Shown piece after piece: positions 14,300 to 55,730 of a DNA stretch of 64,000 nt. A program made the translations under genes and the position numbers. A model generated the notes under the pieces. It searched no databases, was not told where the DNA came from, and worked only from the letters and a program-made list of their open reading frames with translations. The number at the start of each line of letters is the position of its first letter. The first letter of the stretch is position 1. Origin of the DNA: Candidatus Saccharimonadota bacterium (GTDB taxonomy: Bacteria > Patescibacteriota > Saccharimonadia > Saccharimonadales > Saccharimonadaceae); assembly GCA_009777625.1 (NCBI GenBank), contig WRLL01000002.1:563-64562 (forward strand). Direction: 5' to 3'.

Positions 14300-15412
14300 A
14301 TAGCCGAACACAAAGTTCCCCAAGATGTCGAAGCCGAAGACAAACTGCTTGGCCCATTTAGCTTTCGGCAGTTTGTTTATTTGATGATTGCTTTTGCGGC
14401 GGGCGCTATGGCTTTCTTTTTAGGGCAGATGGCGATTATATTAGCGTTTATTCCCTCGCCAGTTATAATTGTGTTTGCAGTTTTGGCGTTGCCTCTTCGC
14501 AAGGATCAGCCTATGGAGACTTATCTGGCGGCGTTGATAAAGTTTTACTTTTCGCCGCATGTTCGACTTTGGGATCCGGATGGTCAAGACAGTCTGATCG
14601 AGATCAGCAACCCGATTGTCGACGACGAACCGCGGATCAAGGAATTCGGCGGCGAAGAAGCAGCCCGGCGCCTGTCATTTCTGGCTGATGTGTCGGACAC
14701 GCAGGGCTGGGCAACGCGCGGTGTTGGTGCGCCGATTAACACGACAATTCTGGCCGATGATTTGGCAGCTGAAGCTTCGACAACAGTAGATATATTAGAG
14801 GGGGCCGATTCATTATCCCAGTCGATTGACAATATGTTAAGTCAGTCTAATCAGCAGGTTCGTCAGGCGGCGGTGATACGTATGCAAAATGACGCGCCTT
14901 CCCCTTCGGTGCCACAGATGGCAGTTCCGTCGACTTCTTCTACGCCGGTTGCAACCAGTGAACCAGCTGTTGTGCCAACTCCACCAGCTGCACCTGTTAC
15001 TGCTTCGCCGTACGCTAGCGTTCAAGCCATGGCCGTCTCGCAGCCAACCAGCAATATCAGTGAAGTCGACGAGGCTAGCGCCGAGGCCCTGCTGAAACAG
15101 GCTGCAGCTGGTATGCCAGTGTCGAATCAGCCATCTATGCAACAAAGGGTTATTCAACCTCTAGGCGGTGTTTTTGGATCGAGTTCTCATTCGACTCCGA
15201 CTCCATCCAGTACATCACCTGTCCCACCCAGACAGCCAGCCGTACCGGTAATACCCACGGCGATCGAACCAGAAGAGCCGACCCCACTGCCGCTCTCGCC
15301 AGTCGAAGCGGAATCTGCTACAATAGAGTCAGCCAGCGCGCCAGAGGACGAAGGAATTATCGACCTTGGCGGCGATGATGGTAATAACGAAACGACGGTT
15401 TCACTTCATTGA
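14300..15412 (+). CDS. PrgI/VirB3-like T4SS membrane protein with long Pro/Ser/Thr/Ala-rich tail
   Basis: The frame opens right after TAA 14294-14296. A conserved-looking KVPQDVEAEDKLLGPFSFRQFVYL motif precedes two TM helices. AGGAG sits 6 nt upstream of ATA 14300. The first canonical start (TTG 14381 / ATG 14384) would delete the motif. Confidence 0.65.
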   Translation: MAEHKVPQDVEAEDKLLGPFSFRQFVYLMIAFAAGAMAFFLGQMAIILAFIPSPVIIVFAVLALPLRKDQPMETYLAALIKFYFSPHVRLWDPDGQDSLIEISNPIVDDEPRIKEFGGEEAARRLSFLADVSDTQGWATRGVGAPINTTILADDLAAEASTTVDILEGADSLSQSIDNMLSQSNQQVRQAAVIRMQNDAPSPSVPQMAVPSTSSTPVATSEPAVVPTPPAAPVTASPYASVQAMAVSQPTSNISEVDEASAEALLKQAAAGMPVSNQPSMQQRVIQPLGGVFGSSSHSTPTPSSTSPVPPRQPAVPVIPTAIEPEEPTPLPLSPVEAESATIESASAPEDEGIIDLGGDDGNNETTVSLH

Positions 15413-15427
15413 ACAAGGGTGGGAAGC

Positions 15428-16249
15428 ATGCAACCAAATCAACAACCGATCAACCCAGCACCAGCCGCCATGCCGGCCCCTGCTCCTGTTGCATCAGGTG
15501 GCAAGCCAACCCCGGCCAGTCCAAAGAACCCAAACTCGACGCAAAATACATTGGTTTTCGAAGAGCTACGCGACAAAATGGTCATCATGGGCGACGGTAC
15601 ATTTCGGGCTGTGGTAGCAGCGCAATCGATCAACTTTGATCTGATGAGCGGCCGCGAGCGCGACAGTATCGAAATGTCATACCAGGACTTCTTGAACTCA
15701 TTGACCTTTCCGATTCAGATTTATATTCGGTCGCAAAGGGTTGATATCGGGCCGTACCTTGACAAGCTAGAGCAATTGCGGGTTAGTCAGGACAACATGC
15801 TGCTTGGCGTATTGATGGACGATTATATTCAATTTATCGACGCCTTGAGCCAAGAAGCCAACATTATGGACAAGAGTTTCTTTATCGTGGTCCCCTATTC
15901 AATCGGCGAAGGCAGCCAAAGGGTTGGCGACAGTACCAGCGGTAAGTTTCCTCTGACGCAATTATTTGCGCCGACCAAAAATCATCAGCATATCAAAGTA
16001 CCGGCCGATCAATACGAGCGCGCCAAGGACGAAATCCAGCGCCGCGTTAACGCTGTAATAGATGGTTTAGCGCAGGTCGGCATTCGTGCCGTGCGGCTGG
16101 ATACGCGCGAGCTGGGTGAGCTGTACTACAATATTTACAATCCTGATACAGCTCTGCGACAGCCCATAGGTGACTTTAAGCAATTCACTGGCACGGTGGT
16201 GCAAAAAGGCCAAGGCCCAGCACCGAGCCAACCTGTAGGAGGCGTTTAA
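15428..16249 (+). CDS. VirB4 N-terminal-domain-like protein (detached), with Pro-rich N-terminal extension
   Basis: FEELRDKMVIMGDGTFRAVVAAQSINFDLMSGRERDSIEMSYQDFLNSLTFPIQIY resembles, from my recollection, the first domain of Gram-positive-type VirB4 (Tn916 Orf16/TrsE class). It ends at a TAA in frame with the next gene. Confidence 0.6.
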   Translation: MQPNQQPINPAPAAMPAPAPVASGGKPTPASPKNPNSTQNTLVFEELRDKMVIMGDGTFRAVVAAQSINFDLMSGRERDSIEMSYQDFLNSLTFPIQIYIRSQRVDIGPYLDKLEQLRVSQDNMLLGVLMDDYIQFIDALSQEANIMDKSFFIVVPYSIGEGSQRVGDSTSGKFPLTQLFAPTKNHQHIKVPADQYERAKDEIQRRVNAVIDGLAQVGIRAVRLDTRELGELYYNIYNPDTALRQPIGDFKQFTGTVVQKGQGPAPSQPVGGV

Positions 16250-18073
16250 ATGGCGAGAAAGAAGAAAACCGAAGTCGATATAGCGGCCCAACAACAAGCT
16301 CGCGAGGCTGCCGAGGTCGCCGCCGAATTCCAAAAAGGCATTACTACTCTGCGCGACCTGATTGCACCAGCCAGCCTAGAATTCAAATCGGGTTATTTCA
16401 TGATGGGGACGCGTTGGTGTCGAACTCTGTATGCTTATGGTTATCCGCGGACTATTTATACCGGCTGGTTGAGCTCTATTATCAACCTTGACGAAGTGAT
16501 TGATGTCAGTATGTTCATTTATCCGGTTGATTCACAGGTTGTCATGAATAACCTGAGGAAGAAAGTCACTCAGCTAGAAGCCTCAATGTCGGTCAACGCC
16601 GAGCACGGCAAAGTTCGCGACCCAGGTCTGGAGGCAGCCTACCAAGATGCCGAAGAACTACGTGATAAATTGCAGATTGGTGCCGAGAAATTTTTCCGCT
16701 TTGGTTTGTATTTTACGCTGTACGGTGAAAGCCAGGACGAACTGGATTATGTGACGCACAAAGTCGAAACTGTTCTGGGCCAACAAATGGTCCTAACCAA
16801 GGTCGCCTCGAGCCAACAGGAGCAAGGACTGAATTCGATTGTGCCACAGTTTTCTGATCAGCTGCAAATTCGACGCAACATGGACACGGGTGCGGTTTCG
16901 ACCTCCTTCCCTTTTACCAGCGCCGATCTGACGCAGGATAATGGGATTTTGTATGGTGTTAACATGCATAACAACGGCTTAGTGATTTTTGATCGCTTTT
17001 CTCTAGAGAATGCTAATATGGCAGTCTTTGCTAAATCCGGTGCTGGTAAATCTTTCACCGTCAAGCTAGAGGCGCTGCGGTCAATGATGATGGGCGCCGA
17101 CATTTTAATTATCGACCCGGAAAACGAGTATCAGAAACTTAGCGATGCAGTTGGTGGCGCATATATCCACCTCAGTTTGAACAGTGACACGCGAATTAAC
17201 CCGTTCGATTTGCCTCAGGTGGTTGACAGTGATGACGGCGAAAGTGCCGATGCATTACGCGCCAACCTGGTGACTCTACATGGATTATTGCGCCAAATGC
17301 TGGGCACCAGCCAAGTTGCGGCTGATGGCTCGATGGTCAGTATCCTTAGCCCAGGCGAAGAAGCTGATCTGGACCAGGCGCTGATTGATACCTATGCGCG
17401 CGTGGGTATTACTTCCGATCCGCTGACGCACAATTCGCCGCCGCCGGTGATGGCTGATCTGTATGATACTTTGCTGCATATGAGCGGTAATGGGCCAGAG
17501 TTGGCGCAGCGGTTGCGGCAATATACCACTGGAACTTTTGCCGGAATCTTTTCGCAGCAATCGAATGTTGAAATCAATAATCACATGGTTGTCTTTAATA
17601 TTCGTGATTTGGAGGACGAACTGCGGCCAGTAGCGATGTATATCGTCCTTTCACATATCTGGAACAAGGTCCGCACAGACAAAAGAAAGCGCATGCTAAT
17701 CGTCGACGAGGCCTGGCAACTGATGAAATATCCGGACAGCGCGAACTTTATGTTTTCGTTGGCCAAGCGGGCGCGAAAGTATTACCTGGGTCTGACAACT
17801 GTGACCCAGGACGTCGAGGACTTCATGAATTCGCAGATGGGCCGAGCGATTGTGGCGAACTCGTCAATGCAGATTTTGTTGAAACAGTCGCCTAGCGCTA
17901 TCGACGTTCTTGGCCAAGTGTTTAAGCTAACAGAGGAAGAACTAAAACGGTTGGCCAACTTCCCGGTCGGTCAAGGGCTATTCTTTGCCGGGCAAAACCA
18001 CGTGCTGATTCAAATTATCGCGTCTCAGACTGAGCAGGATTTGATTACAACGAATCCAGCACAGACCCAGTAA
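16250..18073 (+). CDS. VirB4/TrbE/TraC-family T4SS ATPase (C-terminal two-thirds)
   Basis: LRDLIAPASLEF...YPRTIYTGWL middle-domain motifs, Walker A AKSGAGKSFTVK and Walker B MLIVDEAWQLM. GGAGG lies 7 nt upstream of the ATG. Confidence 0.85.
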   Translation: MARKKKTEVDIAAQQQAREAAEVAAEFQKGITTLRDLIAPASLEFKSGYFMMGTRWCRTLYAYGYPRTIYTGWLSSIINLDEVIDVSMFIYPVDSQVVMNNLRKKVTQLEASMSVNAEHGKVRDPGLEAAYQDAEELRDKLQIGAEKFFRFGLYFTLYGESQDELDYVTHKVETVLGQQMVLTKVASSQQEQGLNSIVPQFSDQLQIRRNMDTGAVSTSFPFTSADLTQDNGILYGVNMHNNGLVIFDRFSLENANMAVFAKSGAGKSFTVKLEALRSMMMGADILIIDPENEYQKLSDAVGGAYIHLSLNSDTRINPFDLPQVVDSDDGESADALRANLVTLHGLLRQMLGTSQVAADGSMVSILSPGEEADLDQALIDTYARVGITSDPLTHNSPPPVMADLYDTLLHMSGNGPELAQRLRQYTTGTFAGIFSQQSNVEINNHMVVFNIRDLEDELRPVAMYIVLSHIWNKVRTDKRKRMLIVDEAWQLMKYPDSANFMFSLAKRARKYYLGLTTVTQDVEDFMNSQMGRAIVANSSMQILLKQSPSAIDVLGQVFKLTEEELKRLANFPVGQGLFFAGQNHVLIQIIASQTEQDLITTNPAQTQ

Positions 18074-23170: not shown

Positions 23171-23362
23171 CTGATTTACTTCTACCCTAACGACACGCTA
23201 AATATAATGTAAAGCCCTTTACTTTTTGCGGCAAATATGGTATATATATACCAAGCCACGTCATGCATAGCATGTCAAGGGTGACATGCGTTTCATGATG
23301 CCGAGCGTAAGCGCTCTGGTGTATATCAACTGATGGGCTACGTTCCCAGAGGAGAGACTGCC

Positions 23363-24337: not shown

Positions 24338-24817
24338 CTATTCGATGCCTGTAATTACAAACTCCGGCGACGGCTGCTCGGGATCGGCATTCACCGTGAC
24401 ATGGTAACGAAACATATCGTTGACGGTCACATCAAACTGGTAATGCCACGCCTGCGGCGGGTCTGCCGGATTTACTTGTCCGTTATCCAGGGTCACAGTA
24501 TAGCCGCTTTCTCCTGGGCCGCCATCGGCCATAACTTTATCTCTTAGCAGGTCTCTCAGAAGGTCGGTATTGCTACTGCCAATCACACGAGCTACTTCGT
24601 TGCGGCTGGCAAATTCGAATTCAAAGAAACCAGATGGCGTCAGGGTGACTGTCGTGGTATCGTCCTGGTCGTCCGGAACTAGTTCTATGTCGTTGTCGAT
24701 GCGTCGATTCCCTATCATCGTGCTGATTATAATGGCAACAATAATGGCGACTATGATAATAGCACCGCTGATAATTAATACTCGCCTGCGGCGTTTAGTT
24801 TGGTTATCATCCTGCAT
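24338..24817 (-). CDS. bitopic exported protein (N-terminal TM + ~115-aa ectodomain), last gene of the T4SS-like operon
   Basis: The RRRRVLIISGAIIIVAIIVAIIISTMI anchor gives a VirB8/PrgL-like size and topology. No sequence motif supports this. Confidence 0.5.
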   Translation of the reverse strand: MQDDNQTKRRRRVLIISGAIIIVAIIVAIIISTMIGNRRIDNDIELVPDDQDDTTTVTLTPSGFFEFEFASRNEVARVIGSSNTDLLRDLLRDKVMADGGPGESGYTVTLDNGQVNPADPPQAWHYQFDVTVNDMFRYHVTVNADPEQPSPEFVITGIE

Positions 24818-24849
24818 GTGTTGCTCCTTTCAGTCTATTGCTAATACTA

Positions 24850-25638
24850 TTAACAGCCACCCGAACCGCCAGAACCATCAGTGGGGCCGGGTTTGACCGA
24901 TTGATCGGCGGCCCATTCGTATGTTAAGACGGTACCAGTTCCGTTGTACATGCCCTGCTTGATTTCCAAATAATCAAAGGCTACGGGTGGAAAACCGGAT
25001 ACTCGACCAGTATAGCCGGATGGTGTGCCAACTTGCGGGTTAGACCAACCTTGTTTTGGATCGTTATTGCTATAAGTGTCAACACCTGTCCATGGCGCAG
25101 GTCCAGCCTCGATTGCAGCAGCATAGATCGATTTACCGTTGTCTGGATTAGTCACCTTGACAATGCGTGGTGCTTCTCTCATCCATGCCAGATATGCAGG
25201 GCCGCCATCTGTCGTTGCCGACTTGCCATTCCAATACCAAGCCACATAACCCCAGCGCATCGTGATGTAATAGTCGCGGTATTCCTGCCCCAATGCTGCG
25301 AAGCCCGAGAATGTTACTTTCGGGCCACTAGGATTAGATATCAGGGCGCCATTCTCGAGCACGGCTTCTTCTAACCCTGCTTTGCCAGAAGTCGCTGGTA
25401 TTGCGAATGATATATCACTGCCTGATGTCGATGTGCTGCCGGGTATGCTACTCACGAGTGATGACAAACAGGCATTATCCGAGTAGAAAAAGATGTTGTT
25501 GGTCGCGTAAAAATCGTTTAGTGTCATGCTAGGCACAGGGGCAGCGTGTGTCACGGAAACGCCCAGGAACGACAAAATCAAGGCCATGGCTGGCAGCCAC
25601 AGGCCTACCAGACGTTTTGGTGCGTGTTGGCGACTCAT
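24850..25638 (-). CDS. secreted protein, possible RlpA/DPBB-like (lytic transglycosylase-type) fold
   Basis: Signal peptide ending VTHAAP. VKVTNPDNGKSIYAAAIEAGP resembles the RlpA V.V.N..NGKS...V.DRGP strand region (weak). The start overlaps the upstream stop (ATGA). Confidence 0.5.
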   Translation of the reverse strand: MSRQHAPKRLVGLWLPAMALILSFLGVSVTHAAPVPSMTLNDFYATNNIFFYSDNACLSSLVSSIPGSTSTSGSDISFAIPATSGKAGLEEAVLENGALISNPSGPKVTFSGFAALGQEYRDYYITMRWGYVAWYWNGKSATTDGGPAYLAWMREAPRIVKVTNPDNGKSIYAAAIEAGPAPWTGVDTYSNNDPKQGWSNPQVGTPSGYTGRVSGFPPVAFDYLEIKQGMYNGTGTVLTYEWAADQSVKPGPTDGSGGSGGC

Positions 25639-26117
25639 AATTCTACCTCTGGTGGCGGCAAATTAGTACACTCAAATGCATCATAGATCAGCTGGCTAAC
25701 GTCGGGGCAAGTTATTAAAATAGTGCCATCACCCAGGACAGACCGGCTATCATTTAGCCAGTTGTCGAGCATCTGGTATGTCTGCTCGAGGCTGGGAATG
25801 TCAATAATGAAAAACGTAACATAGGTGCTCAGGTCATCGTTGTAGCTCTGTAAATAGGAACCATCACGAATGGCAGCGTCTTTTGCGTAGCGTCCTTCGG
25901 CCAACCCATTTTGCTGTAGCATCAGAGTTAAGGTCTGTTCGATAACCACGCGTCGGCTGTTTGGCAAGTTCCCGACATACTGATCGAAGTTGGTTATGAC
26001 TGACCTGGGGGTACCGTCAGAATTAGACAGCAGCGGCGTGAATGCCAGACCAATTATTACTATCACCAATGTGGTTACGACTATGATTACGCGTTTGCGC
26101 CAAGCCTTATATTCCAT
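25635..26117 (-). CDS. bitopic exported protein (N-terminal TM + ~125-aa ectodomain)
   Basis: RVIIVVTTLVIVIIGLAFTPLL anchor. GGAG SD upstream. Size and topology are VirB8-like. No motif evidence. Confidence 0.5.
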   Translation of the reverse strand: MEYKAWRKRVIIVVTTLVIVIIGLAFTPLLSNSDGTPRSVITNFDQYVGNLPNSRRVVIEQTLTLMLQQNGLAEGRYAKDAAIRDGSYLQSYNDDLSTYVTFFIIDIPSLEQTYQMLDNWLNDSRSVLGDGTILITCPDVSQLIYDAFECTNLPPPEVEL

Positions 26118-26164
26118 GGGTGCTCCTTGCCTTGTTATACTTCTGTCTAGATATCATAATCATT

Positions 26165-29100
26165 TTACCATCCAGTAGTCGACCAGTGCCACGGCTCTGC
26201 AAGACGTGGTGGTGTGTCCAGATTAATCAAGCCATATCTTGCAGCGTTGGCCGCCAGCCACTTAAACCCATCACTGTTTTTGTTGCTGCCAAAGTTGAAG
26301 TCTATAGCGCCGCCACCTTCGTGTTGGGAAGTGCCCGGAGTAGCGACCGGCGGGCTGCATCCGGGGCAGCCTCTGGATTTGTACAAGTTCGTCTGCGTTT
26401 CGTTGGAACGCCAGCCAGTGCCGTTCAGCCTAATTCCGGCTGTCGTCCAGGCGTCGTCAATCATCTGGGCAACATTGCCGGAAATAAGCGAGTTAACAGT
26501 AATAGTGGTGTTATTGACTGTACAGATCTTGAAGGTAACACCCCCACTAAGGCCTAGAGACGGTATGCTAAATTCCCGGTTGTTATAGGATTCTATAAAT
26601 TCTGTTGTCCCTGTAGCGCAAGGTATACTAGAATAATCCATGCCTGGGGTCAGGGTCCAGCCCCTACCGTGCTGGGTAACATTATCCGGGGTGGCAATGG
26701 TTAGAGACGAACCTGCGCTGCCGTCATCGTTTGGCTCCTCGTCCATCGAATCAAGGATGCGTTTGTAGATTAGATAGTTGTAAAACACGACGTTCTCGGA
26801 GACACCATTGATAGCGGCGACTTGATCGGTGCTGGCAACCAGTTGACCACGGCTATCCAGTGTTTCATGCGCCATGGCGATAGTTGGGCCGGCACTACCT
26901 GAGGCAAAGTCGGTGTCCTGCATACACCTGACACCATCGCCGACGTCTGCTTGGCCCTCCAGGGACTCGGTGCCTATCGGGACTCCGCGGTCAACACACT
27001 TTTCGATAAATTCAGAGAAAACAGTGCCGGCGACCGGATCACCCTCGGCGTCAATGAGATTATTGTCTTCCATGTATGCTACTGTTTGCCCTAAATCAGT
27101 CGTCGTTGTCAGACCATAGGTCGGTATACCCAAGTAGTCACAGCCAACACCGGCGGCTTCGTAGTCTAAATCGGCGCACTTAAAGTAGTCAGAAGAGATT
27201 TCTTCGGCGGAAGCTCTGGGGCCGGCTAACGCGCCACGAAAAGCTGTGCCGATCAGCCCGTACGTCTTGGCAAAGAACGCTGGGATACTGTTAGTTGCTC
27301 CATCCATATGGACTGACATATTGCCAGCAAACGATCCAAGTGGTGTGTAAGGATTCCTTACGTCGTACCAATTGGCACCGATGCGCTCTTCTGCGGCATA
27401 GGCCAGCGCGAGCCCGCGAGTCTGATTGGCTTGGTTAACGGCTTGCTGCGGACTGAGTGGCGCACAGCCGCCTGCCTGACAGGCTTCCTTAAACATGCTG
27501 CTTGCCCCGACCGCCCAAGCGTCGCCAGCCTGCTCGCCTAGTGTATCATCATCGATCACTACACCAGCTGCTATGTCTGTCAGCACACCGGGCAGTATGG
27601 CCACGATGGCCTCGAAACCAAGATTGCCAACTATATTTGTCCAGAAACGTTTGTTTTTGAGTAGTCCTTTGTTGAACATCTGTCTGAATTGTTGCTTGAT
27701 AGCTGCCTTTACGGCCTGCTGAAAGGCTATTTGGCCGCTTTTTAGGACGGCATTACCAGTGCCGGCTGTAAAGATGCCTACTACGACATTTATAGTTATA
27801 CCGATTGCAGCATCGGCAATTTGGAAGGCTATACTGCGGACCTTCTTGCAATCCGATGCGAGATTGTGCTCACCTATTTTACTGGCACCTTGGTTGATGC
27901 CAGCCAACATAGCGCCCCATATACTACCCCCCAGTGACCCCATAAAGTTCATCATCGACTCGCTGGGTGGCATGCGGTCGCCAAACAATACATATTTCAT
28001 GCCGACGCCATCAGTTGCGGCGCCCTGCACGATGTCGCCCTTTTTGATGTCGGCCAATATGGTACCATCCGTGTCTTTGATCACCTCGTCAGAGGCTGCT
28101 CTGAGTACCGTGGTCAACGTATTACCCAGGAATTCGCCCTGGGCTGGCGTGGCCTTACCAAGTCGCATAGCATCAGCTGCGCTCATAAACGCCATGGCGT
28201 AGCGGATCAACTGGATATTACGCACCATTTTTATACCGACACCGACTGCACGAACTGCATTATACAGACCGCAAACATAATTTAGGGTGCCGCCAGTGAC
28301 GTTCACGAATCCAGCTATTTTCTGGAGGTTGCTTTCGGACATGCCGCTGACTGCCGCTGTGACGGCGCGTTTGCCAGACGATGCGGCTTCTTCGGCACCG
28401 CTGGCAATGGCAGAGGTAGACCGGTTCATTTCTTCGACTTGCGCAGTCAGGCTGGCTCTATCATCCCAAGATTTCGTAATCGGCTTGCCATCATCACCTA
28501 ACACGGGCCTGTCGTTTTGGTCGACAATCTGCTGTGTACCGTTTTGGTTATCCGGATCCACTGGTGCAACCCTAAAGCTACTCTGCCCGGGTGCAACGCC
28601 ATCATTGACAGCTGACCTCAGCTTACTCTTCATTTCCTCTGCGTCGCCAGTTTCAGGCAAAGGTGGCCTTTTGCTGGCCTTAGCCTTGGCTACCACGCGG
28701 CTGAATGTGCGGTCGGTAAAACCGGCAAATTTGGGGTCGTAGCCGGCTTTGCGGAATGCCTTGCTGACTGCTGGGTCTGTTGCCATTGCTTTCTGAATAG
28801 TGGTTGCATCGTATACCATTACACCATTGAGCGGTTTGACGTTGTCTGGTAGCTGTATAGAGTGCACTGACTGACGGCCGCTGCCTGGGCTAATCGGGTG
28901 GCCCCCACTATCGAAGAGCTTGAACCCAGCTTTGTCTAGTCGTTTAACCATGCGCGCAGGCATTTTCTTGAATTTACAGGTCGCGCTGACTGCTGTGCAA
29001 ACTTGGCCGGACAGACTCTGACGCCAAACATGCCCTGAATTATTTTTCATAGGCCACCACTGGACGTTCATTATACCACCGCTCATCGCACCTGTTAGCC

Positions 29101-29491
29101 AGGGCAGCAGCGTTGCTGGTCCACTAAACATCAGTAGTGCGCCAGCAATGCCAAAACCTCCGGCACTGCCAAAGAGTATCTTTTTGGCATGTTTTTTCAT
29201 AAATGTCTTGGCCTTGTCGCCTCTGCCACCACCTTCTTTGCTGCCTTTTTTATCACCACTATAGTCCCAGGGATTGGATGGTGCATCCTGGCGCTCGGCG
29301 TCGGAAACGTTGGATGAATCGGTCGGTGAATTGCCGGCGGCTTGTTCGGCGGCACCCAGTTGGGACCCGATCGAATGGTCAGCGGGGTTGTCATAACCAG
29401 CGGTGGGATTTGAATAGTCAATCTCTGGTTGCTGGGTACGCCCAAGATCTTCTAGAAGCTGGGCGGTATACTCTTTCTTCTTAGCGGCCAT
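26165..29491 (-). CDS. 1108-aa membrane-associated protein with C-terminal M15 (VanY/D,D-carboxypeptidase-type) zinc peptidoglycan peptidase domain
   Basis: The C-terminus carries GWRSNETQTNLY, SQHEGGGAIDF (SxHxxGxAxD) and EPWHWS (ExWH), the VanY/M15B metal-ligand pattern. There is an N-terminal hydrophobic segment (ILFGSAGGFGIAGALLMFSG) and further hydrophobic stretches mid-protein. GGAGG SD upstream. Confidence 0.8.
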   Translation of the reverse strand: MAAKKKEYTAQLLEDLGRTQQPEIDYSNPTAGYDNPADHSIGSQLGAAEQAAGNSPTDSSNVSDAERQDAPSNPWDYSGDKKGSKEGGGRGDKAKTFMKKHAKKILFGSAGGFGIAGALLMFSGPATLLPWLTGAMSGGIMNVQWWPMKNNSGHVWRQSLSGQVCTAVSATCKFKKMPARMVKRLDKAGFKLFDSGGHPISPGSGRQSVHSIQLPDNVKPLNGVMVYDATTIQKAMATDPAVSKAFRKAGYDPKFAGFTDRTFSRVVAKAKASKRPPLPETGDAEEMKSKLRSAVNDGVAPGQSSFRVAPVDPDNQNGTQQIVDQNDRPVLGDDGKPITKSWDDRASLTAQVEEMNRSTSAIASGAEEAASSGKRAVTAAVSGMSESNLQKIAGFVNVTGGTLNYVCGLYNAVRAVGVGIKMVRNIQLIRYAMAFMSAADAMRLGKATPAQGEFLGNTLTTVLRAASDEVIKDTDGTILADIKKGDIVQGAATDGVGMKYVLFGDRMPPSESMMNFMGSLGGSIWGAMLAGINQGASKIGEHNLASDCKKVRSIAFQIADAAIGITINVVVGIFTAGTGNAVLKSGQIAFQQAVKAAIKQQFRQMFNKGLLKNKRFWTNIVGNLGFEAIVAILPGVLTDIAAGVVIDDDTLGEQAGDAWAVGASSMFKEACQAGGCAPLSPQQAVNQANQTRGLALAYAAEERIGANWYDVRNPYTPLGSFAGNMSVHMDGATNSIPAFFAKTYGLIGTAFRGALAGPRASAEEISSDYFKCADLDYEAAGVGCDYLGIPTYGLTTTTDLGQTVAYMEDNNLIDAEGDPVAGTVFSEFIEKCVDRGVPIGTESLEGQADVGDGVRCMQDTDFASGSAGPTIAMAHETLDSRGQLVASTDQVAAINGVSENVVFYNYLIYKRILDSMDEEPNDDGSAGSSLTIATPDNVTQHGRGWTLTPGMDYSSIPCATGTTEFIESYNNREFSIPSLGLSGGVTFKICTVNNTTITVNSLISGNVAQMIDDAWTTAGIRLNGTGWRSNETQTNLYKSRGCPGCSPPVATPGTSQHEGGGAIDFNFGSNKNSDGFKWLAANAARYGLINLDTPPRLAEPWHWSTTGW

Positions 29492-29518
29492 GGTTTACCT
29501 CCACGGTATCTTTAATCA

Positions 29519-32209
29519 TCACCCCCCACCTCCCCCAGGAGCCGGTGGCGCCGGCGGTGCAGGTGGTGGCGCTCCTCCACCCCAACCCCTCAGCGCAGCT
29601 CGTTGACCTTCGTCAAGAGAGAGATTGCGGTTGTCTAGAATGCGTTGTGCGGTGTCTGCCTTCCACTGTGCACCTGTGACGCCGTCTCCCATGTCTGCAT
29701 CGTCCCTTATTGACGTCCCCGCCTGTACTAGCGCTGCGGCATTCTGGGTAGCTATCTCGCTATCGCCCAGGGTGGCCCATACGCCACCGCGGCCTGCTGC
29801 ATCTGTAGCGCCAATGTCTTGTTCTGCGAGTGTCGCGTTGGGGTCTCTAGCCCATGCAGCCACTGAAGCATAGCCACCTTTCACTGCACCATAGTGTTTG
29901 GTCTGGATATCCGACCTTAGATCTGTCGCCACAGCATTCCATCCTCCGGTTCCTTCGACATCTCTCAATGTGTCATGCAATGCCATCACGCCACGTTTAC
30001 CACGGGCCACCATCTGGTTCTGGACTGCCCGGGCTCTGTCGACATTGCCGGTCGCTACAGCCTCTCTCATCTGACGTTCCAAACTCACTATTGGGTCAAT
30101 ATTTGTTCCTCGCTCATGCCCCTTCCCGCTCATGTCCATTTCCAGTTGGCTGGCAACGAGGGCTTCCTGAGCCTTAACAGCTTCAGTCGATCGCTCAAGT
30201 GCCAGTTCATAGCCCTTAGCTTCGCGAGCCTGTCCCGTCTTACCTAGCCTTGCATTTGCTGCCCGGGTGGCTCGTGCCCGCCAACTGTTAGACTGCTCAC
30301 CGCTTTTGTTCAGGCCAGCCCGACGGAAAGCCTGGGTCCTCTGGGCGTTGGCCTGATGTCTTTTCCACATTTGCCCGCCCAATGAACGTTCATGTTCTTC
30401 TTTGGCTTTCGACTTGGTTCGTCCAAATTGGCTGCTCATGCGTCCAGCTGCGAAACCACCGACCATAGCGCCGACCTTGCCAAGGCTATTGAGTGAACCC
30501 TTCAGGATCCATGGTACGGCGAATAGAGGTAGAATTTGGGCGGCTGAGCCAGCCAGCATCAAGGCAAAACCGGTCACATCTATGGTGCCACTACCCTTTG
30601 ACATTAGATCGTTGCCCTGCGCTATAAGGATCTGGCCACCCAGTATTGATGCGCCGTAGATTAGGCCAATGATCGGATAGACCAGCAGGAGCGACGAGAA
30701 GACCTTCCACCACTTCTTGAACAGTGATTGGGTATTAGGCAGTATGGCCATGGCGAAGGCTATTGGTGCGATGACTACCAGCAACACAACAGCCAGCTGG
30801 CGAACAATCAGGATGAGGAGTGTCATTAGCAGTACGAGCAAGACGGCCAGTATGAGCGGGATGAATATACTCAGGCTGGAGAACAGTGCTATACCACCAG
30901 CGATCAGAGCGCCGGATATAATTAGGCCGGTGATGCTGGCAAAGCCACCGCCCGTGGTTGTATTAGGGCCGTCAGGCACCTCGATTGCCGGTACATTGTA
31001 GGCTAAATCGGTGAAGAAGGCTTTCATGCTTGAGCCAAGCAAGTTGCTAATGTCTACTGCTACGGCACAGATCCACCATGACAGGTTTAACAGGATGGCA
31101 AAGATAATTAGTCTAGGCAGGATTTGCTTGACGCTGTAATTACTAAGAGCGCCAAAGCCATTGCCGGTGGCTGTAGAATAGATAATAACAAGGAACAGTA
31201 TGACCAGGAGAATGTTAGCGATCGGTAGAATAGCTGCATAGGCCCCATAGGCTGGGCTGCTGGTGTCAAACATTGTGGGCTGAACCTGCAGGAAGCCTTC
31301 GAGCAGGCTGAACGTGTGGTCGGCTACTTCACCGAGGAAGTCTAGGATTGGGCAGAGGAGCCAGCCTATGCCGGTTATGGCGCAGTCAGAGAGAGAGTTA
31401 ACATCTGCTGGTCTACAGAAAGGAAAGCCATCAGAATCGGCTTCCCACGTGCCGTCGTCAGCCTCGCACGCCGCCCGGCGTTCGGATTCAGGTATACAGC
31501 GGTTCTCAGTATTTATCCACTCACCGCCAGCATTAACACAATTTACCTGATTGGATGTTTCTAAAGTCGTGGTGTCAACTTGCTGTAGGGCCGCACCGAT
31601 GCTGGCGATGCTTGGCGGGTTATCCGTTACGATGTTTTTACCATTTATGCAGCTTTCCATTAACGCTGGACCTGATTTGCCTCTGGTTTCGTCTGCACAT
31701 GTTACGTATGCATTAATGACTCTTGATCGACAGTTTGCGTAGTCCTGTTGCATGCTGGGGCTGCCGCTGCCACCACCATATCTGGAACAATATAAACTGA
31801 TAAGAGGTTGTAGCGCAACGGCTAATTCCGGATCGTATTGTCGTTCGGCCGCCTGTAGTCCCAGAGCGCAGCTTGCCGGGGCATTATCCACAATGCTGCC
31901 AACGAAGCACGAATCGAACGTACTTCCATTGCTGGCGCTTTGATAACCCTTAATGCAATTATCTAGCCATACGTCTTCCTTGTTCTGGAAGGTAAAGCTT
32001 TTTTTTACTTGCTCGCCCGAGAGGAAATCCTTTACTTCCCATTCTACATTACGCGGGAAATTGCTTGAATTGTTCCGAAAGTTGTTACACCAATCGCTAG
32101 CCGCATCAGCATAAGCCGACTGGACGTTAGAAATCATTGGCGCAAATATAGAGACCACCAATCCCAAAATCGCTGGAAATATGAGGGCCCTCTTCCACCA
32201 CTTTTTCAT
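29519..32209 (-). CDS. VirB6/TrbL-like polytopic T4SS membrane protein with Cys-rich N-terminal ectodomain and long charged C-terminal tail
   Basis: Signal/anchor MKKWWKRALIFPAILGLVVSIFAP, then a ~290-aa ectodomain with ~20 Cys, then ~7-8 TM helices, then a ~300-aa Arg/Ala/Gly-rich tail ending PPPAPPAPPAPGGGGG. The start was set at ATG 32209. Confidence 0.65.
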   Translation of the reverse strand: MKKWWKRALIFPAILGLVVSIFAPMISNVQSAYADAASDWCNNFRNNSSNFPRNVEWEVKDFLSGEQVKKSFTFQNKEDVWLDNCIKGYQSASNGSTFDSCFVGSIVDNAPASCALGLQAAERQYDPELAVALQPLISLYCSRYGGGSGSPSMQQDYANCRSRVINAYVTCADETRGKSGPALMESCINGKNIVTDNPPSIASIGAALQQVDTTTLETSNQVNCVNAGGEWINTENRCIPESERRAACEADDGTWEADSDGFPFCRPADVNSLSDCAITGIGWLLCPILDFLGEVADHTFSLLEGFLQVQPTMFDTSSPAYGAYAAILPIANILLVILFLVIIYSTATGNGFGALSNYSVKQILPRLIIFAILLNLSWWICAVAVDISNLLGSSMKAFFTDLAYNVPAIEVPDGPNTTTGGGFASITGLIISGALIAGGIALFSSLSIFIPLILAVLLVLLMTLLILIVRQLAVVLLVVIAPIAFAMAILPNTQSLFKKWWKVFSSLLLVYPIIGLIYGASILGGQILIAQGNDLMSKGSGTIDVTGFALMLAGSAAQILPLFAVPWILKGSLNSLGKVGAMVGGFAAGRMSSQFGRTKSKAKEEHERSLGGQMWKRHQANAQRTQAFRRAGLNKSGEQSNSWRARATRAANARLGKTGQAREAKGYELALERSTEAVKAQEALVASQLEMDMSGKGHERGTNIDPIVSLERQMREAVATGNVDRARAVQNQMVARGKRGVMALHDTLRDVEGTGGWNAVATDLRSDIQTKHYGAVKGGYASVAAWARDPNATLAEQDIGATDAAGRGGVWATLGDSEIATQNAAALVQAGTSIRDDADMGDGVTGAQWKADTAQRILDNRNLSLDEGQRAALRGWGGGAPPPAPPAPPAPGGGGG

Positions 32210-32216
32210 ATATATA

Positions 32217-32245
32217 ATCATAAACGAAATTGCGTTTGAATGCAA
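32217..32245 (-). promoter_or_regulatory. leaderless promoter of the VirB6-like operon (TTGCAT-N17-TATGAT-N7-ATG)
   Basis: On the minus strand, -35 TTGCAT is at 32245-32240 and -10 TATGAT at 32222-32217, with the ATG at 32209. Near-identical to the module at 55737-55765. Confidence 0.6.
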
Positions 32246-32275
32246 CTACTGTCACGGTACAAGAATGATGCGATA

Positions 32276-34335: not shown

Positions 34336-34430
34336 TCGAATGACATCGGGTTTGTCCGGCTTAAGCTTTGCTATTGCTTTTTAACAATCGAAAATGTTAC
34401 ACTTGTCGCTACAAATTATAAGGAGGGACA

Positions 34431-45896: not shown

Positions 45897-45988
45897 GGAG
45901 AGGTGTCCGAGTGGTTGAAGGAGCACGCTTGGAAAGCGTGTAAGCGGGGTGACTCGTTTCGAGGGTTCGAATCCCTTCCTCTCCGCCA
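45897..45988 (+). tRNA. tRNA-Ser (anticodon GGA), CCA encoded
   Basis: Manual cloverleaf. Acceptor GGAGAGG/CCTCTCC; anticodon arm CACGC-TTGGAAA-GCGTG; long variable arm; T-loop TTCGAAT. Confidence 0.9.
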
Positions 45989-46052
45989 GGAAGAAAAGAA
46001 AAATGTCGGCCCGCGAGGTTGACATTTTTGTTTCTTGCAAAGTCATTGGCCA

Positions 46053-46061
46053 TGTTACAAT
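46053..46061 (+). promoter_or_regulatory. extended -10 promoter, leaderless (carboxypeptidase gene)
   Basis: TGtTACAAT at 46053-46061, followed by 7 nt and ATG 46069. No SD. Confidence 0.5.
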
Positions 46062-46068
46062 ATTCATA

Positions 46069-47247: not shown

Positions 47248-47281
47248 TGCTTTTCCAACAACCTGTCCTTGTTGAAAACGA

Positions 47282-47310: not shown

Positions 47311-47342
47311 ATAAACGTAAATGTAATCTAAGGAGGGTTGCA

Positions 47343-52819: not shown

Positions 52820-53230
52820 CTAAACCGAAGTACCGCCGCCGGCGCCTGTACCAACAACACTGACAACCCAGCTCACGATCGCATAGCCCAGGATTGCGAC
52901 AACCAAACCGATTATAGCGTACAGGATGGTATTCTTTGCATCCTTGACCTTTTCTTGGTTACCGCCAGAGATAACATAGCGAATACCACCCCAAATCAGC
53001 ATGAAAATCGCCAGAATTCCAACGACGAACAGCATCAGATTAATGGCGCGCGGGATCAATGCTTGTGGCCCATCAAACAGCTCGGTCGGTTGGCCTTCGC
53101 CACGATAAGAACCGCTAAAAACATCCAATATCGACAAAGCAGAAGCCGGCAAGGTCGACATCAGCGTCACACCAACAAACAGCGTGGCAACTGAGATGAC
53201 CTTGCTTAACTTCTTAAATAATTGTCGCAT
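52820..53230 (-). CDS. VirB2/TrbC-like T4SS pilin paralog 7
   Basis: Signal peptide, then TM1, the WGGIRYVISGGNQEKVKDAKNTILYAIIGL loop and TM2. No Cys in the ectodomain. Confidence 0.75.
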   Translation of the reverse strand: MRQLFKKLSKVISVATLFVGVTLMSTLPASALSILDVFSGSYRGEGQPTELFDGPQALIPRAINLMLFVVGILAIFMLIWGGIRYVISGGNQEKVKDAKNTILYAIIGLVVAILGYAIVSWVVSVVGTGAGGGTSV

Positions 53231-53244
53231 AGAGCTACCTTTGA

Positions 53245-53661
53245 CTAACCGCCGAGTACTCCAAATACCCAGTTAACCAGTGCGTAGGCGATGATTGCTA
53301 TGATTAGGCCAACCACGGAGTACAGAATAGTATTCTTGGCGTTCTTGACCTCGTCTTCTTTACCGCGTGACAAGACATAGCGGATACCACCCCAGATGAT
53401 CATGATGACAGACAGGATACCAACGATAAACAGCATAATGTTGATAACGGTGGTCACAATGCCATTATTACCAAACAGCGAGCCGGTTTGCATGCCTTCG
53501 CCGACTGCACAGTCTTCGTTAATTGCGCCCGCCAAACCTTGCGTCTCGTCGCATGGATCACCCGGCGCCGCATGGACCGCTGGTGCGAACAATCCGAACC
53601 CCAGCACCAAAGCTGGCACTAAAAGCAATGTTGTGCTGATTTTCTTTATCATGCTTTTCAT
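53245..53661 (-). CDS. VirB2/TrbC-like T4SS pilin paralog 6
   Basis: Signal peptide ending VHAAP, a 2-Cys variable segment and the WGGIRYVLSRGKEDEVKNAKNTILYSVVGL core. Confidence 0.78.
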   Translation of the reverse strand: MKSMIKKISTTLLLVPALVLGFGLFAPAVHAAPGDPCDETQGLAGAINEDCAVGEGMQTGSLFGNNGIVTTVINIMLFIVGILSVIMIIWGGIRYVLSRGKEDEVKNAKNTILYSVVGLIIAIIAYALVNWVFGVLGG

Positions 53662-53736
53662 TTAGCCTCCCTCTATCAAATTACTAATTCTTTAACATTT
53701 TACTAAACTTGGAGTTTCATTGCAAATCGATTATGT

Positions 53737-54171
53737 TTAAGATCCCAGCAGACTAAACACCCATTGGACGATTGCGAAGGCCAGAATTGCCACGATCAGA
53801 CCAACGATCGCATAAATAATAGTGTTTTTTGCATTCTTAACTTTTTCAGGATCGCCGCGTGACAGGACGTAACTGATGCCGCCCCAGATGATCATGATGA
53901 CAGACAGGATACCGATGATGAAGAGCATAATATTGATGACCTGCTGGATAGTGCTGTTAAGGTCGCGGGCGCCGCTGGCTCGCACGCATTTTCCGCCGAC
54001 CCATTCTGATCCGGTCTCGGATTGGCAGGCGCTACAGGCTGCAATATTTGCAGCACCAGACAGTTTGTTACAATCAGCTGGGGCTGCGTACGCCGGTGCG
54101 GGCGCAAGGAATGTTGCGCCAACGCCCAATACTGCGACCATGGCAACAATTATATTTGTTAGTTTCCTCAT
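53737..54171 (-). CDS. VirB2/TrbC-like T4SS pilin paralog 5
   Basis: Signal peptide ending AYAAP, a 4-Cys variable segment and the WGGISYVLSRGDPEKVKNAKNTIIYAIVGL core. Confidence 0.78.
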   Translation of the reverse strand: MRKLTNIIVAMVAVLGVGATFLAPAPAYAAPADCNKLSGAANIAACSACQSETGSEWVGGKCVRASGARDLNSTIQQVINIMLFIIGILSVIMIIWGGISYVLSRGDPEKVKNAKNTIIYAIVGLIVAILAFAIVQWVFSLLGS

Positions 54172-54187
54172 AGGTGACTCCTTTCTT

Positions 54188-54586
54188 TTATAACCTACTT
54201 AAAACGAAATTGACAATTGCAAAGGCTGACACAGCGATAACCAGACCGACGATCGAATAGATCAGCATGTTACGGGCTTTTGTGACGGCATCTGGGCTGC
54301 CGCGGCCGGTTACGAAGCGAATACCGCTGATGGTGATCATGATGACGGCGATGATACCAGCTACAAAGATTAGGACATTGATGATATTTCTAAAAGTATT
54401 ATTTAAGGCTGTGTCGGCATTGGGGTCTTTCAGATCGGCGCAAACGGAGGAGTTCGGATTGGCCTTGCATAATTCCTGTATATTCTTTTCCGTAGAGGTA
54501 TCGGGTGCGGCAGATGCTGGCATTGCAAAGACCAAACTACCGGACAGGCCTGCGATCATGACTAAACTTAAGAAGATCTTCTTCAT
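54188..54586 (-). CDS. VirB2/TrbC-like T4SS pilin paralog 4
   Basis: Signal peptide ending ASAAP, a 2-Cys segment and the SGIRFVTGRGSPDAVTKARNMLIYSIVGL core. Confidence 0.75.
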   Translation of the reverse strand: MKKIFLSLVMIAGLSGSLVFAMPASAAPDTSTEKNIQELCKANPNSSVCADLKDPNADTALNNTFRNIINVLIFVAGIIAVIMITISGIRFVTGRGSPDAVTKARNMLIYSIVGLVIAVSAFAIVNFVLSRL

Positions 54587-54589
54587 CGG

Positions 54590-54862
54590 CTAAACCCTTC
54601 CAAACACAAAGTTAGTAATCGCAAAGGCTGCTACAACTACAACTAGCCCAATTACAGCGTAGAGAATGGTCTGCATGGCTTTCTGAGCCTTAGCCGGATC
54701 ACCGTTAGCTGTCAGATAACGGTAGCCAGCCATGATTATGAAAATTACCGCCACCATACCTAGAATAAAGTATGCGAGATTCAAAATGTTAGTCATCAGC
54801 CGGTCGCCGGAAACTTTCGGAACGTTGACATCTATTGCTGCGAGTAATCCAAGTACTTTCAT
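54590..54862 (-). CDS. VirB2/TrbC-like T4SS pilin paralog 3 (short, minimal N-terminus)
   Basis: 90 aa with the AGYRYLTANGDPAKAQKAMQTILYAVIGL core. The start overlaps the upstream stop (ATGA). Confidence 0.7.
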   Translation of the reverse strand: MKVLGLLAAIDVNVPKVSGDRLMTNILNLAYFILGMVAVIFIIMAGYRYLTANGDPAKAQKAMQTILYAVIGLVVVVAAFAITNFVFGRV

Positions 54863-55326
54863 GCGCCCAACCTCCCGACAATAAAGCTAACAATAATGGC
54901 CGATATCATAGCAATGACCGCGCCGATGACGGCCTTCAAAATTGTGTCTTGGGCCTTTTTGGTTTCTTCGGGTTCGCCTTGGGATGTAACGTATCTAAAG
55001 CCGCCATAGATAACATAGCCTACTGCCAAAATGCCGACGATACGCAAGGCGATGTCAACAATGTTCAGAACGACAGTAAAGATAATGACGTTTACCTGGA
55101 GCTCGCAATTGCCATCTTTGCCTCCTTTGCCTGGGACATTGCCCAGGCCTCGGTACCAAGTTGGGAAACCAAAAAAGTTGGCGTCAGAGTCAGCGGCGCC
55201 GGGGATCACTTCGCCTGTGCAGGGAGCATTTCTAGCTACAGCGCTGACCGCCGTTGGCATAGCAATCATCAGACCAGTTGCGCTAAATGCAACTATGGAT
55301 AAACTTATTATAAATTTCTTTATCAT
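54859..55326 (-). CDS. VirB2/TrbC-like T4SS pilin paralog 2
   Basis: AGGAGG SD before ATG 55326. Signal peptide MIKKFIISLSIVAFSATGLMIAMPTAVSA, a 2-Cys segment and the GGFRYVTSQGEPEETKKAQDTILKAVIG core. The ORF-track extension to 55521 overlaps paralog 1. Confidence 0.75.
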   Translation of the reverse strand: MIKKFIISLSIVAFSATGLMIAMPTAVSAVARNAPCTGEVIPGAADSDANFFGFPTWYRGLGNVPGKGGKDGNCELQVNVIIFTVVLNIVDIALRIVGILAVGYVIYGGFRYVTSQGEPEETKKAQDTILKAVIGAVIAMISAIIVSFIVGRLGA

Positions 55327-55730
55327 GAAAGGATGCCTCCTGGCACCAGGAAATTCAATGCTGCCCACATAATGAAGTATAGGACCAACCCGATAACAGA
55401 ATTCCTGATAGTGTCCAGACCTTTTTTCGATTGTTCGGGGTTTCCGCCACTGGTGGTGTAGAGGATCGCTCCATAAATTATGCCACCCAGCACAGCGATT
55501 GATACACCAATAGCCATCCAATTGACGATAGTGATAAGTAACGGTGTAATCTGTTCTGGGTTGCCTGAATCACAGCCCCAGTCAAAGAAAGTGTCCACAC
55601 CGCAGTTACGGTTTCCGGTCGCAGCCGAGACGCCTTTTGCGGTCAACAACGCTGCGGCAGTCACAGACAACGGCCCGCCAAATCCAAACACCCTTGATGG
55701 CAAAGAAAGCTTCAAGTGTCGTTTTAGCAT
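55323..55730 (-). CDS. VirB2/TrbC-like T4SS pilin paralog 1 (most divergent)
   Basis: Signal-like N-terminus, a 2-Cys segment (NCGVDTFFDWGC) and the two-TM core ILYTTSGGNPEQSKKGLDTIRNSVIGL. Confidence 0.65.
   Translation of the reverse strand: MLKRHLKLSLPSRVFGFGGPLSVTAAALLTAKGVSAATGNRNCGVDTFFDWGCDSGNPEQITPLLITIVNWMAIGVSIAVLGGIIYGAILYTTSGGNPEQSKKGLDTIRNSVIGLVLYFIMWAALNFLVPGGILS

Follow-up and report, generated by a model that had tools for sequence, protein, structure and literature searches.

The window examined here, a stretch of 64,000 nucleotides from a Saccharibacterium (class Saccharimonadia; contig WRLL01000002.1), contains five tightly packed minus-strand open reading frames (ORFs) at 24338-32245, which encode proteins of 896, 1108, 160, 262 and 159 aa (g1 to g5) and raise the question of whether these proteins form part of a type IV secretion system (T4SS) whose VirB4 and pilin genes are found elsewhere in the same window. 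Computational analysis, comprising ORF prediction, profile and sequence searches, synteny, structure prediction, Foldseek comparison and the literature, indicates that the five genes are very probably the membrane-channel and cell-wall-penetration part of a chromosomal, conjugation-derived (MPF-FATA-like) T4SS, a reading that is supported mainly by synteny with other Saccharimonadia. A first-pass annotation of the window had described a five-gene minus-strand set of these sizes with intergenic gaps, from g1 to g5, of 27 nt, 47 nt, a 4-nt ATGA overlap (g3 stop/g4 start) and 32 nt, all of which agree exactly with the ORF coordinates.

Synteny with type IV secretion genes

Comparison of contig loci encoding homologues in other Saccharimonadia (numbered L002 to L014; L020 denotes a locus of Nakamurella) revealed a recurring cluster in which divergently oriented pilin genes are followed by one or two VirB6 genes, PrgI, a TraC-like gene (PF26593), VirB4, a giant gene (880-1060 aa), a small gene, a second hydrolase gene and one or two unknown genes. 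The contiguous cluster abuts recF-dnaN-dnaA in L007 and L008 and the same gene order was found in L004/5; in L011/14 and L013 the VirB6, giant, g3-like and hydrolase genes occur without VirB4 between them, and L012 is less clear. Homologues of g1 adjoin PrgI, TraC-like and VirB4 genes and pilin arrays in L004/5, L007, L011, L012 and L013, the pilin array abutting the VirB6 gene in L004, L011, L012 and L013. In L004, L007 and L008 the distance from the virB4 stop codon to the start of the giant g2 homologue is about 20 nt at most, the genes overlapping in two of them, and g4 homologues are encoded in T4SS clusters after the giant gene. The VirB4 of the window is 76-97% identical to those of L004, L007, L008 and L009, relatives whose VirB4 genes adjoin giant or g4 homologues or share the split layout seen here. 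The earlier proposal that the module is part of a T4SS is supported by this occurrence of g1-g4 homologues beside VirB4, PrgI and TraC-like genes and pilin arrays.

In the window itself, VirB4 lies 6.3 kb from the module on the opposite strand and the pilin array, which adjoins Hsp20 and a ComF-like gene, lies 20.6 kb away, distances that had been given correctly at first pass; the PrgI-like gene has a weak PrgI match. The same layout is present in L009, where the giant gene, the g3 homologue, the g4 homologue and a small gene are followed by GroES/EL, PGI, DAGK and an inverted VirB4/TraC-like/PrgI block. The contiguous order of the other relatives is collinear with prgH-prgI-prgJ-prgK-prgL of pCF10, and from both it follows that the module represents two ends of an ancestral T4SS operon, one with VirB6 and the other following VirB4. 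As judged from gene order, the two ends would have been joined after the PrgI/TraC-like/VirB4 block moved and inverted, the ancestral contiguous cluster being broken up in the lineage of the window. That the module lies apart from VirB4 and the pilins reflects a rearrangement specific to this lineage and does not make it a separate system.

The same synteny bears on the alternative that the operon is a general wall-remodelling or division (autolysin) locus containing an unrelated polytopic protein and situated near T4SS genes by chance. The window holds other wall genes (FemAB, Mur ligase and S11 carboxypeptidase), housekeeping autolysins often contain M15, M23, CHAP and RlpA-like domains, and the operon is not adjacent to virB4 in this genome. 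However, g2 and g4 homologues are found directly downstream of virB4 and in the same direction in L004, L007 and L008, g1 homologues abut pilin arrays, the g4 domain occurs beside a coupling protein gene in an actinobacterium and the gene order copies that of pCF10 prgH-L, and a chance autolysin locus is regarded as very improbable. Sortase-pilus and Tad readings were also considered and rejected, as the pilins are of the VirB2 type (PF18895) and no sortase or Tad family was found among the ORFs scanned.

The VirB6/TrbL-like protein

The topology of g1-g5 was obtained from a crude Kyte-Doolittle hydropathy scan, and the orientation of g1 was inferred from its signal peptide. Following a signal or anchor segment at residues 8-26 (896-aa numbering), g1 has transmembrane (TM) segments at about 325-343, 367-385, 450-468, 507-525 and 545-563, with a 64-aa loop between TM2 and TM3. 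At this crude level the protein has the topology of VirB6, that is, an N terminus outside, five TM segments, a larger loop after the second of them and a C terminus inside. The N-terminal extension is an extracellular domain of about 300 aa with Cys and the C-terminal extension a hydrophilic domain of about 330 aa ending in a Pro/Gly tail, and with these two additions g1 is an 'extended' VirB6.

Regarding family membership, 87 homologues of g1 were found, with similarity to clear homologues down to E 1e-112, and the Pfam family TrbL/VirB6 (PF04610) was matched by 27 of the 50 homologues scanned (best E 3.9e-9). The NCBI protein FWG95_00580 (P0001), which is identical to g1, carries a precomputed match to PF19590 (TrbL_3). 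Membership of g1 in the VirB6/TrbL family is supported transitively, through these homologues, and not directly; together with the VirB6-like topology this agrees with the initial designation of the 896-aa protein as VirB6/TrbL-like. A profile of the g1 family found nothing among PDB sequences, tblastn of g1 against 72,556 plasmids gave no match, and a search of genome contigs with the single g1 sequence returned one locus only.

Genes of this type also occur in other arrangements. In another Saccharimonadia genome (L002/L003, 10001-18626), three VirB6/TrbL_3 paralogues of 863, 929 and about 1065 aa are arranged in tandem, with no other T4SS gene within 10 kb, and L006 contains a solitary VirB6-like gene amid housekeeping genes.

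The giant M15B peptidase

The 1108-aa protein g2 has about three TM segments according to the hydropathy scan and, as had been noted at first pass, ends in a VanY/M15 peptidase domain, detected at residues 1003-1104 with a Pfam score of 37.0 bits against a cutoff of 25 (E 3.5e-9). The motifs SxHxxGxAxD and EPWHW are intact and align with those of the VanY-type carboxypeptidases 5hnm and 6a6a, and the presence of HEGGGAID and EPWHW with the zinc ligands H-x6-D and ExxH places the domain in M15B. The N-terminal part of about 925 aa is conserved among the giants, with 28% identity over 953 aa to the giant of L011, and a g2-family profile recovered only the VanY domain among PDB sequences.

At the position occupied by VanY in g2, VanY is also found in L004, M23 in L008 and CHAP in L011, L013 and L009, while no enzyme domain was detected in the giant of L007. 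The giant family swaps its catalytic domain on a conserved N-terminal part. Having a catalytic domain with an intact site and homologues in the T4SS operon after virB4, g2 has the features of a PrgK-type protein. Comparison of the g2 family with PrgK by hhalign gave a probability of 0.4%, and g2 had no SLT, lysozyme or glucosaminidase match that would mark it as a VirB1 homologue. A glycan-directed function may instead reside in g4, as an analogue and not a homologue of VirB1.

The predicted double-psi beta-barrel protein

The 262-aa protein g4 has a signal peptide in the hydropathy scan and shares with 57 homologues a highly conserved domain of about 180 aa, in which P81, G85, E90, M127, R128, V162, G179, P180, G211 and G215 are invariant. 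Members of the family usually consist of this domain at the N terminus, a linker with Cys and a peptidoglycan hydrolase domain of variable type; among the 57 homologues the C-terminal domains were M23 (23), C39_2 (10), VanY (5), NlpC/P60 (3), Amidase_2 (2) and CHAP (1). In contrast to this build, g4 stops precisely at the conserved Cys of the linker, and other, independent short members of the family (P0103, P0106) end near the same boundary.

The N-terminal domain had no match in Pfam (including DPBB_1/RlpA), NCBIfam or PHROGs in either g4 or the 57 homologues, the PHROGs scan matching the C-terminal peptidase domains only. An AlphaFold2 (AF2) model of g4 made with the 57-sequence alignment contained a block with a predicted local distance difference test (pLDDT) score of 96-98 over residues about 81-250. 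Foldseek comparison of this model with the PDB returned double-psi beta-barrel (DPBB) folds only, including PA4485 (4avr, probability 1.0), kiwellins, p97-N, loosenin and cerato-platanin, and comparison with BFVD returned phage RlpA and RlpA-like DPBB proteins (best E 3.2e-5). The top matches had probabilities of 0.9-1.0 and E values of 3e-5 to 1e-2 with modest TM-scores of 0.25-0.63, the low scores being due to a domain about twice the size of the minimal barrel. The model supports the prediction of an RlpA-like DPBB core in g4 at the level of fold, so that the RlpA/DPBB-like region that had been suspected by eye in the 262-aa protein agrees with a confident model and Foldseek.

A g4-type DPBB domain was also detected on a genuine actinobacterial contig of Nakamurella silvestris (QXCQ01000061.1; L020, 6001-9223; 69% GC), where it is fused to NlpC/P60. 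The gene is followed directly by that of a VirD4-type coupling protein, and an EccE-like membrane protein and SSB are encoded nearby. This locus looks like an actinobacterial conjugative T4SS cluster that shares a hydrolase module with Saccharibacteria and, as its DPBB gene lies beside VirD4, the DPBB domain is T4SS-associated outside Patescibacteria too. In the literature searched, no paper was found that links DPBB domains with T4SS.

The small bitopic proteins

Both small proteins had been proposed to be VirB8-like. Regarding topology, g3 has an N-terminal TM segment at 10-28 and then an extracellular domain in which two Cys are conserved among about 130 aa, and g5 has one at 13-31 followed by about 130 aa, in agreement with the bitopic organization of VirB8-like proteins. 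A word-based search with g3 returned only g3 itself, and its homologues were recovered from syntenic loci and one metagenome scan; they are 32-36% identical, share the two Cys and are present in L009 (32%), L011/L014 (34%), L012 and L013. In the window, L009, L011/14 and L013, g3 or its homologue is found directly after the giant gene, which is the position of prgL after prgK. Small genes at the g3 position in L004 and L008 likewise overlap the start of the next hydrolase gene; the proteins they encode have no detectable relation to g3.

A comparison of the g3 family with PrgL by hhalign aligned the TM segment alone (probability 0.7%), and the g3-family profile had no significant match among PDB sequences. 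Gram-positive VirB8-like proteins are known not to resemble one another in sequence, which makes the negative profile result weak evidence. The assignment of g3 to the PrgL/VirB8 position is accordingly limited to its position and bitopic topology, both of which fit.

The protein g5 belongs to a rare and fast-evolving family encoded directly downstream of g4-type genes, and only six matches to it were found among 1.8 billion representative proteins. In all three g5 homologues with known context (P0146, P0149, P0147), the gene overlaps the 3' end of a C39_2-like g4-family gene, whereas unrelated proteins come next after g4-family genes of the M23 or LAS type. A weak similarity to Ig-like repeats suggests a beta-sandwich, and the g5-family profile had no match among PDB sequences. 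Comparison of g3 with g5 rejected the possibility that they are paralogues. The VirB8-like designation of the two proteins is tentative: the bitopic topology of both and the position of g3 fit, profile similarity of g3 to PrgL or PDB entries was not found, and g5 looks more like a partner of a g4-type hydrolase than an analogue of VirB8.

Proposed function and points against it

In the proposed organization, g1 would be a VirB6/TrbL-type polytopic subunit of the cytoplasmic-membrane translocon and g2 a PrgK-like membrane-anchored giant whose M15B zinc peptidase probably cuts peptidoglycan stem peptides, which would allow the machine and its VirB2-like pilus to pass the wall of the epibiont. 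The protein g3 may act as a bitopic structural subunit at the PrgL/VirB8 position, while the secreted, RlpA-like DPBB protein g4 may bind glycan strands or cleave them, with g5 as its possible membrane-anchored partner. The products of the operon would work, presumably in a complex and on a cargo that is likewise presumed, with the PrgI/TraC-like/VirB4 module 6 kb off and the pilins 20 kb off.

Several results weigh against this interpretation. Regarding g1, the protein itself has no Pfam match at E<=1, comparison of its family with PrgH by hhalign gave no match, and some genomes (L002/3, L006) have VirB6-like paralogues outside the neighbourhood of T4SS genes. The N-terminal 925 aa or so of g2 match nothing in Pfam, PDB sequences or PHROGs, and the second catalytic domain that is present in most g4 homologues is absent from g4. 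The single-sequence AF2 model of g3, with a pLDDT of 41, is unusable for judging an NTF2-like fold. The window ORFs that were scanned yielded neither a relaxase nor a coupling protein, and the operon status of the five genes is inferred from gene spacing alone.

Unequal divergence between close relatives

Comparison of the window with its close relative L009 revealed very different degrees of conservation. Identity is 96.5% for VirB4, 83% for the TraC-like protein, 91% for GroES, 88% for GroEL, 83% for PGI and 75% for DAGK. Within the module, the g4 core is 78% identical, its C-terminal domain being absent in the window and of the LAS type in L009, g3 is 32% identical, and g5 shares the TM segment alone with its positional counterpart. 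The last 626 residues of the L009 giant are unrecognisable against g2 and carry CHAP in place of VanY, yet g2 can be aligned over 925 residues with the giant of L011, which is more distant than L009. The dissimilarity of g2 to the C-terminal part of the L009 giant and its likeness to the distant L011 giant point to replacement or mosaicism and not to drift alone, and the comparison indicates that the wall-facing genes have probably been replaced or are mosaic, rather than only drifting fast.

This pattern also bears on an alternative in which the hydrolases would be polymorphic effectors directed against the wall of an actinobacterial host or of competitors, and not only assembly factors acting on the wall of the epibiont. 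In that case the conserved N-terminal part (the 925 aa of the giant or the DPBB domain of g4) would serve delivery or docking at the T4SS, the exchangeable C-terminal domain would correspond to the peptidoglycan of the target, and the small downstream genes (g5 and its counterparts) would encode cognate inhibitors or immunity proteins. Such a role is consistent with the swapping of C-terminal domains on a conserved N-terminal scaffold in both hydrolase families, with the divergence of the module from L009 (g3, g5, the C-terminal 626 aa of the giant and the enzyme domains) despite the 96.5% identity of VirB4, and with the overlap of three of three g5 homologues of known context with C39_2-type g4 genes, the M23 and LAS types having unrelated followers. 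Bacteria-killing T4SSs with hydrolase effector-immunity pairs are reported in Xanthomonas and Stenotrophomonas. On the other hand, Gram-positive conjugation hydrolases (PrgK, TraG, TcpG, CwlT) cut the donor wall and need no immunity protein, several TM segments anchor g2, which is not obviously a secreted effector, the link between g5 and C39_2 consists of three related cases that may reflect shared ancestry, and the g4 of the window is without any toxin-like domain. An effector function is therefore rated as rather unlikely.

In an elaborated form, both hydrolase families would constitute a polymorphic, T4SS-docked wall arsenal in which interchangeable domains, borne by a conserved scaffold (the N-terminal 925 aa of the giant or the previously undescribed T4SS-associated DPBB domain), are matched to host wall chemistry and g5-like proteins act as cognate inhibitors, a tentative possibility that is considered improbable. 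If it were true, the hydrolase domains would help to set host range, and g5 in the window would be an orphan left after deletion of a C39-like partner domain.

The short form of g4 and the split cluster might also be read as signs of decay of an integrated conjugative element, with the truncated g4 as a decaying gene. The system descends from monoderm conjugation machinery (PMC12102498), g4 is without the C-terminal domain found in its closest homologue and the cluster is fragmented. However, all ORFs are long and intact, the split layout is kept in L009 with a 96.5% identical VirB4, short g4 forms with the same domain boundary arise independently (P0103, P0106), the GC content resembles that of the neighbouring DNA, the window ORFs scanned yielded neither an integrase nor a relaxase, and the orthologous system is essential in 'Ca. 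Southlakia epibionticum', so that decay of such an element is highly unlikely. The assembly and wall-penetration role of the module in a T4SS is retained as the preferred reading in the comparison that follows.

Comparison with known systems

The first-pass annotation had regarded the five products, as far as could be judged by eye, as lacking close characterized relatives, which overstated their novelty. The T4SS of 'Ca. Southlakia epibionticum' ML1 has been described and is essential by transposon sequencing (Tn-seq), including a 1113-aa M15B protein, SEML1_0007, and the equivalent cluster SEML1_0006-0019 is essential for epibiotic growth (Wang 2023, PMC10633639). A survey of T4SS across Patescibacteria concluded that they descend from monoderm conjugation systems and are located near dnaA (Quinonero-Coronel 2025, PMC12102498), and the T4SS of Saccharibacteria is like Gram-positive conjugation systems but includes pilins, and neither a relaxase nor a coupling protein could be recognised in its cluster (PMC10633639, PMC12102498). 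The system is thus already published, and the module adds a member with some new detail.

The likeness to S. epibionticum rests on architecture, not on measured alignment. Its SEML1_0004-0019 region likewise encodes VirB6/TrbL-like proteins of about 1000 aa, and SEML1_0007, which is essential, has a Hedgehog/DD-peptidase domain at 951-1105 of its 1113 aa, the same architecture as g2 (PMC10633639). As in the module, a second wall hydrolase followed by small exported or bitopic proteins is present in the S. epibionticum and Patescibacteria systems; as in the window, these also have PrgI, TraC/TrsD-like, VirB4 and VirB2-like pilin genes and lie near dnaA-dnaN-recF, with no relaxase seen. Unlike in S. 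epibionticum, the cluster of the window is in three pieces, the ATPase module being 6 kb away on the opposite strand and the pilins 20 kb away. The second hydrolase also differs, being a short DPBB-only form in the window and annotated as two lysozyme-like domains plus a cysteine proteinase in SEML1_0006. One VirB6 paralogue was identified in the window (no search for a second was made), and g3 and g5 have no annotated counterpart in S. epibionticum ML1.

The conjugative plasmid pCF10 of Enterococcus faecalis encodes PrgH (VirB6-like), PrgI (VirB3), PrgJ (VirB4), PrgK (VirB1-like, 871 aa) and PrgL (VirB8-like), and this order of VirB6, VirB3, VirB4, a large TM-anchored multi-domain hydrolase and a small bitopic protein is that of the contiguous Saccharimonadia clusters; both systems operate in a monoderm envelope. 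At the level of individual proteins the two differ considerably, as g1, g2 and g3 have no detectable sequence or profile similarity to PrgH, PrgK and PrgL, PrgH has 266 aa whereas g1 has 896 aa with large extra domains, and PrgK has LytM, SLT and CHAP domains whereas g2 has M15B and no recognisable glycosidase domain. In addition, a relaxase and a VirD4 coupling protein are present and pilins absent in pCF10.

Regarding the enzyme domains, g4 has its core fold in common with RlpA-type DPBB proteins (the lytic transglycosylase RlpA, PA4485 and expansin/kiwellin-like proteins) and, like RlpA, is predicted to be exported into the cell-wall compartment. Identity to these proteins is only 8-20%, there is no Pfam DPBB_1 match and the domain of about 180 aa is roughly twice the minimal barrel; unlike RlpA-type proteins, those of the g4 family have exchangeable peptidase or amidase domains fused to the DPBB domain, and their genes are part of T4SS clusters. 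The VanY/LdcB M15B D,D- or L,D-carboxypeptidases (5hnm, 6a6a, 5zhf) share the SxHxxGxAxD and ExxH motifs with g2, but in g2 this domain makes up about the last 100 residues of a protein of 1108 aa with several TM segments.

The new details are therefore the split architecture, the previously unannotated DPBB domain that also occurs in an actinobacterial T4SS cluster, domain swapping, the pairing of g4 with g5 and the contrast in rate with VirB4. Few machines have been shown to be indispensable to Patescibacteria living as epibionts, and the T4SS is one of them. These details provide candidates for host-specificity determinants and for biochemistry, and the split indicates that the genes of the wall-facing half need not be linked to those of the ATPase and the pilins; the picture of the system is unchanged.

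Operon structure and putative promoter region

The coordinates of the features are given in Table 1. Homologues were found elsewhere for all five ORFs, which are therefore real genes and not chance ORFs, and the GC content of the module resembles that of its surroundings. Shine-Dalgarno motifs (GGAGG or AAGGAG) are present ahead of g2, g3 and g5. The ATG start of g1 is the one used by NCBI; it is separated by 30 nt from the ATG of a divergent HIT gene, and no Shine-Dalgarno motif was seen ahead of it. In this short region, TTGCAT-18-TATGAT on the minus strand ends 7 nt ahead of the g1 ATG and a perfect TATAAT is found on the plus strand 22 nt ahead of the HIT ATG (region 32210-32240), suggesting that the promoters of g1 and HIT overlap divergently and that their leaders are very short or absent. 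The absence of a Shine-Dalgarno motif together with TATGAT at 7 nt from the ATG makes a leaderless g1 plausible, and g1 as the leaderless first cistron of the operon, behind a putative promoter, is plausible but unproven. A consensus promoter scan did not flag the g1 start site, and the counts obtained in promoter and terminator consensus scans were not above shuffled expectation.

Table 1. Position of the module and of related T4SS features in the window.
Feature	Position	Strand	Description
ATPase module	14381..18073	+	PrgI-like (VirB3), TraC-like/TrsD-like and VirB4; Pfam, identity to relatives
VirB4	16250-18073	+	607 aa; Pfam P-loop_TraG 2.6e-27, AAA_10, DUF87
g5	24338..24817	-	159-aa bitopic protein, beta-rich C-terminal domain (predicted)
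g4	24850..25638	-	secreted 262-aa protein, short family form
RlpA-like DPBB core (predicted)	24874..25416	-	g4 residues about 75-255; AF2 + Foldseek
g3	25635..26117	-	160-aa bitopic protein, PrgL/VirB8-like position
g2	26165..29491	-	giant 1108-aa membrane-anchored cell-wall hydrolase
VanY/M15B zinc peptidase domain	26180..26485	-	g2 residues 1003-1104
g1	29519..32209	-	extended VirB6/TrbL-family polytopic membrane protein, 896 aa from ATG at 32209
g1 ORF	29519-32245	-	908 aa from TTG at 32245
Putative operon promoter	32210..32246	-	TTGCAT-18-TATGAT-7-ATG; read from the sequence
Seven VirB2-like pilin genes	52820..55730	-	PF18895 T4SS_pilin, 1.9e-15 to 4.4e-9, all seven

Genomic surroundings

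The window spans the replication origin region, with YidC, DnaA (7990-9432), DnaN and RecF. After RecF the order is a MacB-type ABC pair, the PrgI-like, TraC/TrsD-like and VirB4 genes, DAGK, PGI, GroEL/ES, a 305-aa membrane protein and the module, beyond which HIT, two paralogous membrane proteins of 406 and 436 aa and ValS are found. The MacB-type pair (FtsX/MacB_PCD permease and ATPase; 11957-14070, minus strand) separates recF from the PrgI/VirB4 module; the T4SS clusters of L007 and L008 are next to recF or one gene away from it.

The 305-aa protein (23333-24250, plus strand) is bitopic and has no family match; its N terminus is disordered and its extracellular domain comprises about 170 aa. 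Its gene is convergent with g5 and is absent at that position in L009. The 406- and 436-aa proteins (33115-35741, plus strand), whose genes come next after HIT, the gene divergent from g1, are tandem membrane-anchored paralogues, 38% identical over 390 aa, without family assignment.

Further from the module, a full-length trehalase (61415-62932, plus strand; Pfam 7e-140) adjoins a surface protein (60038-61231) in which Big_5 and InlB B-repeat domains are present. As actinobacterial hosts are rich in trehalose, the trehalase may relate to feeding on the host. Four tRNA-Ser genes (GGA, CGA, TGA, GCT) are located within 4.7 kb at 45897-50540, on both strands.

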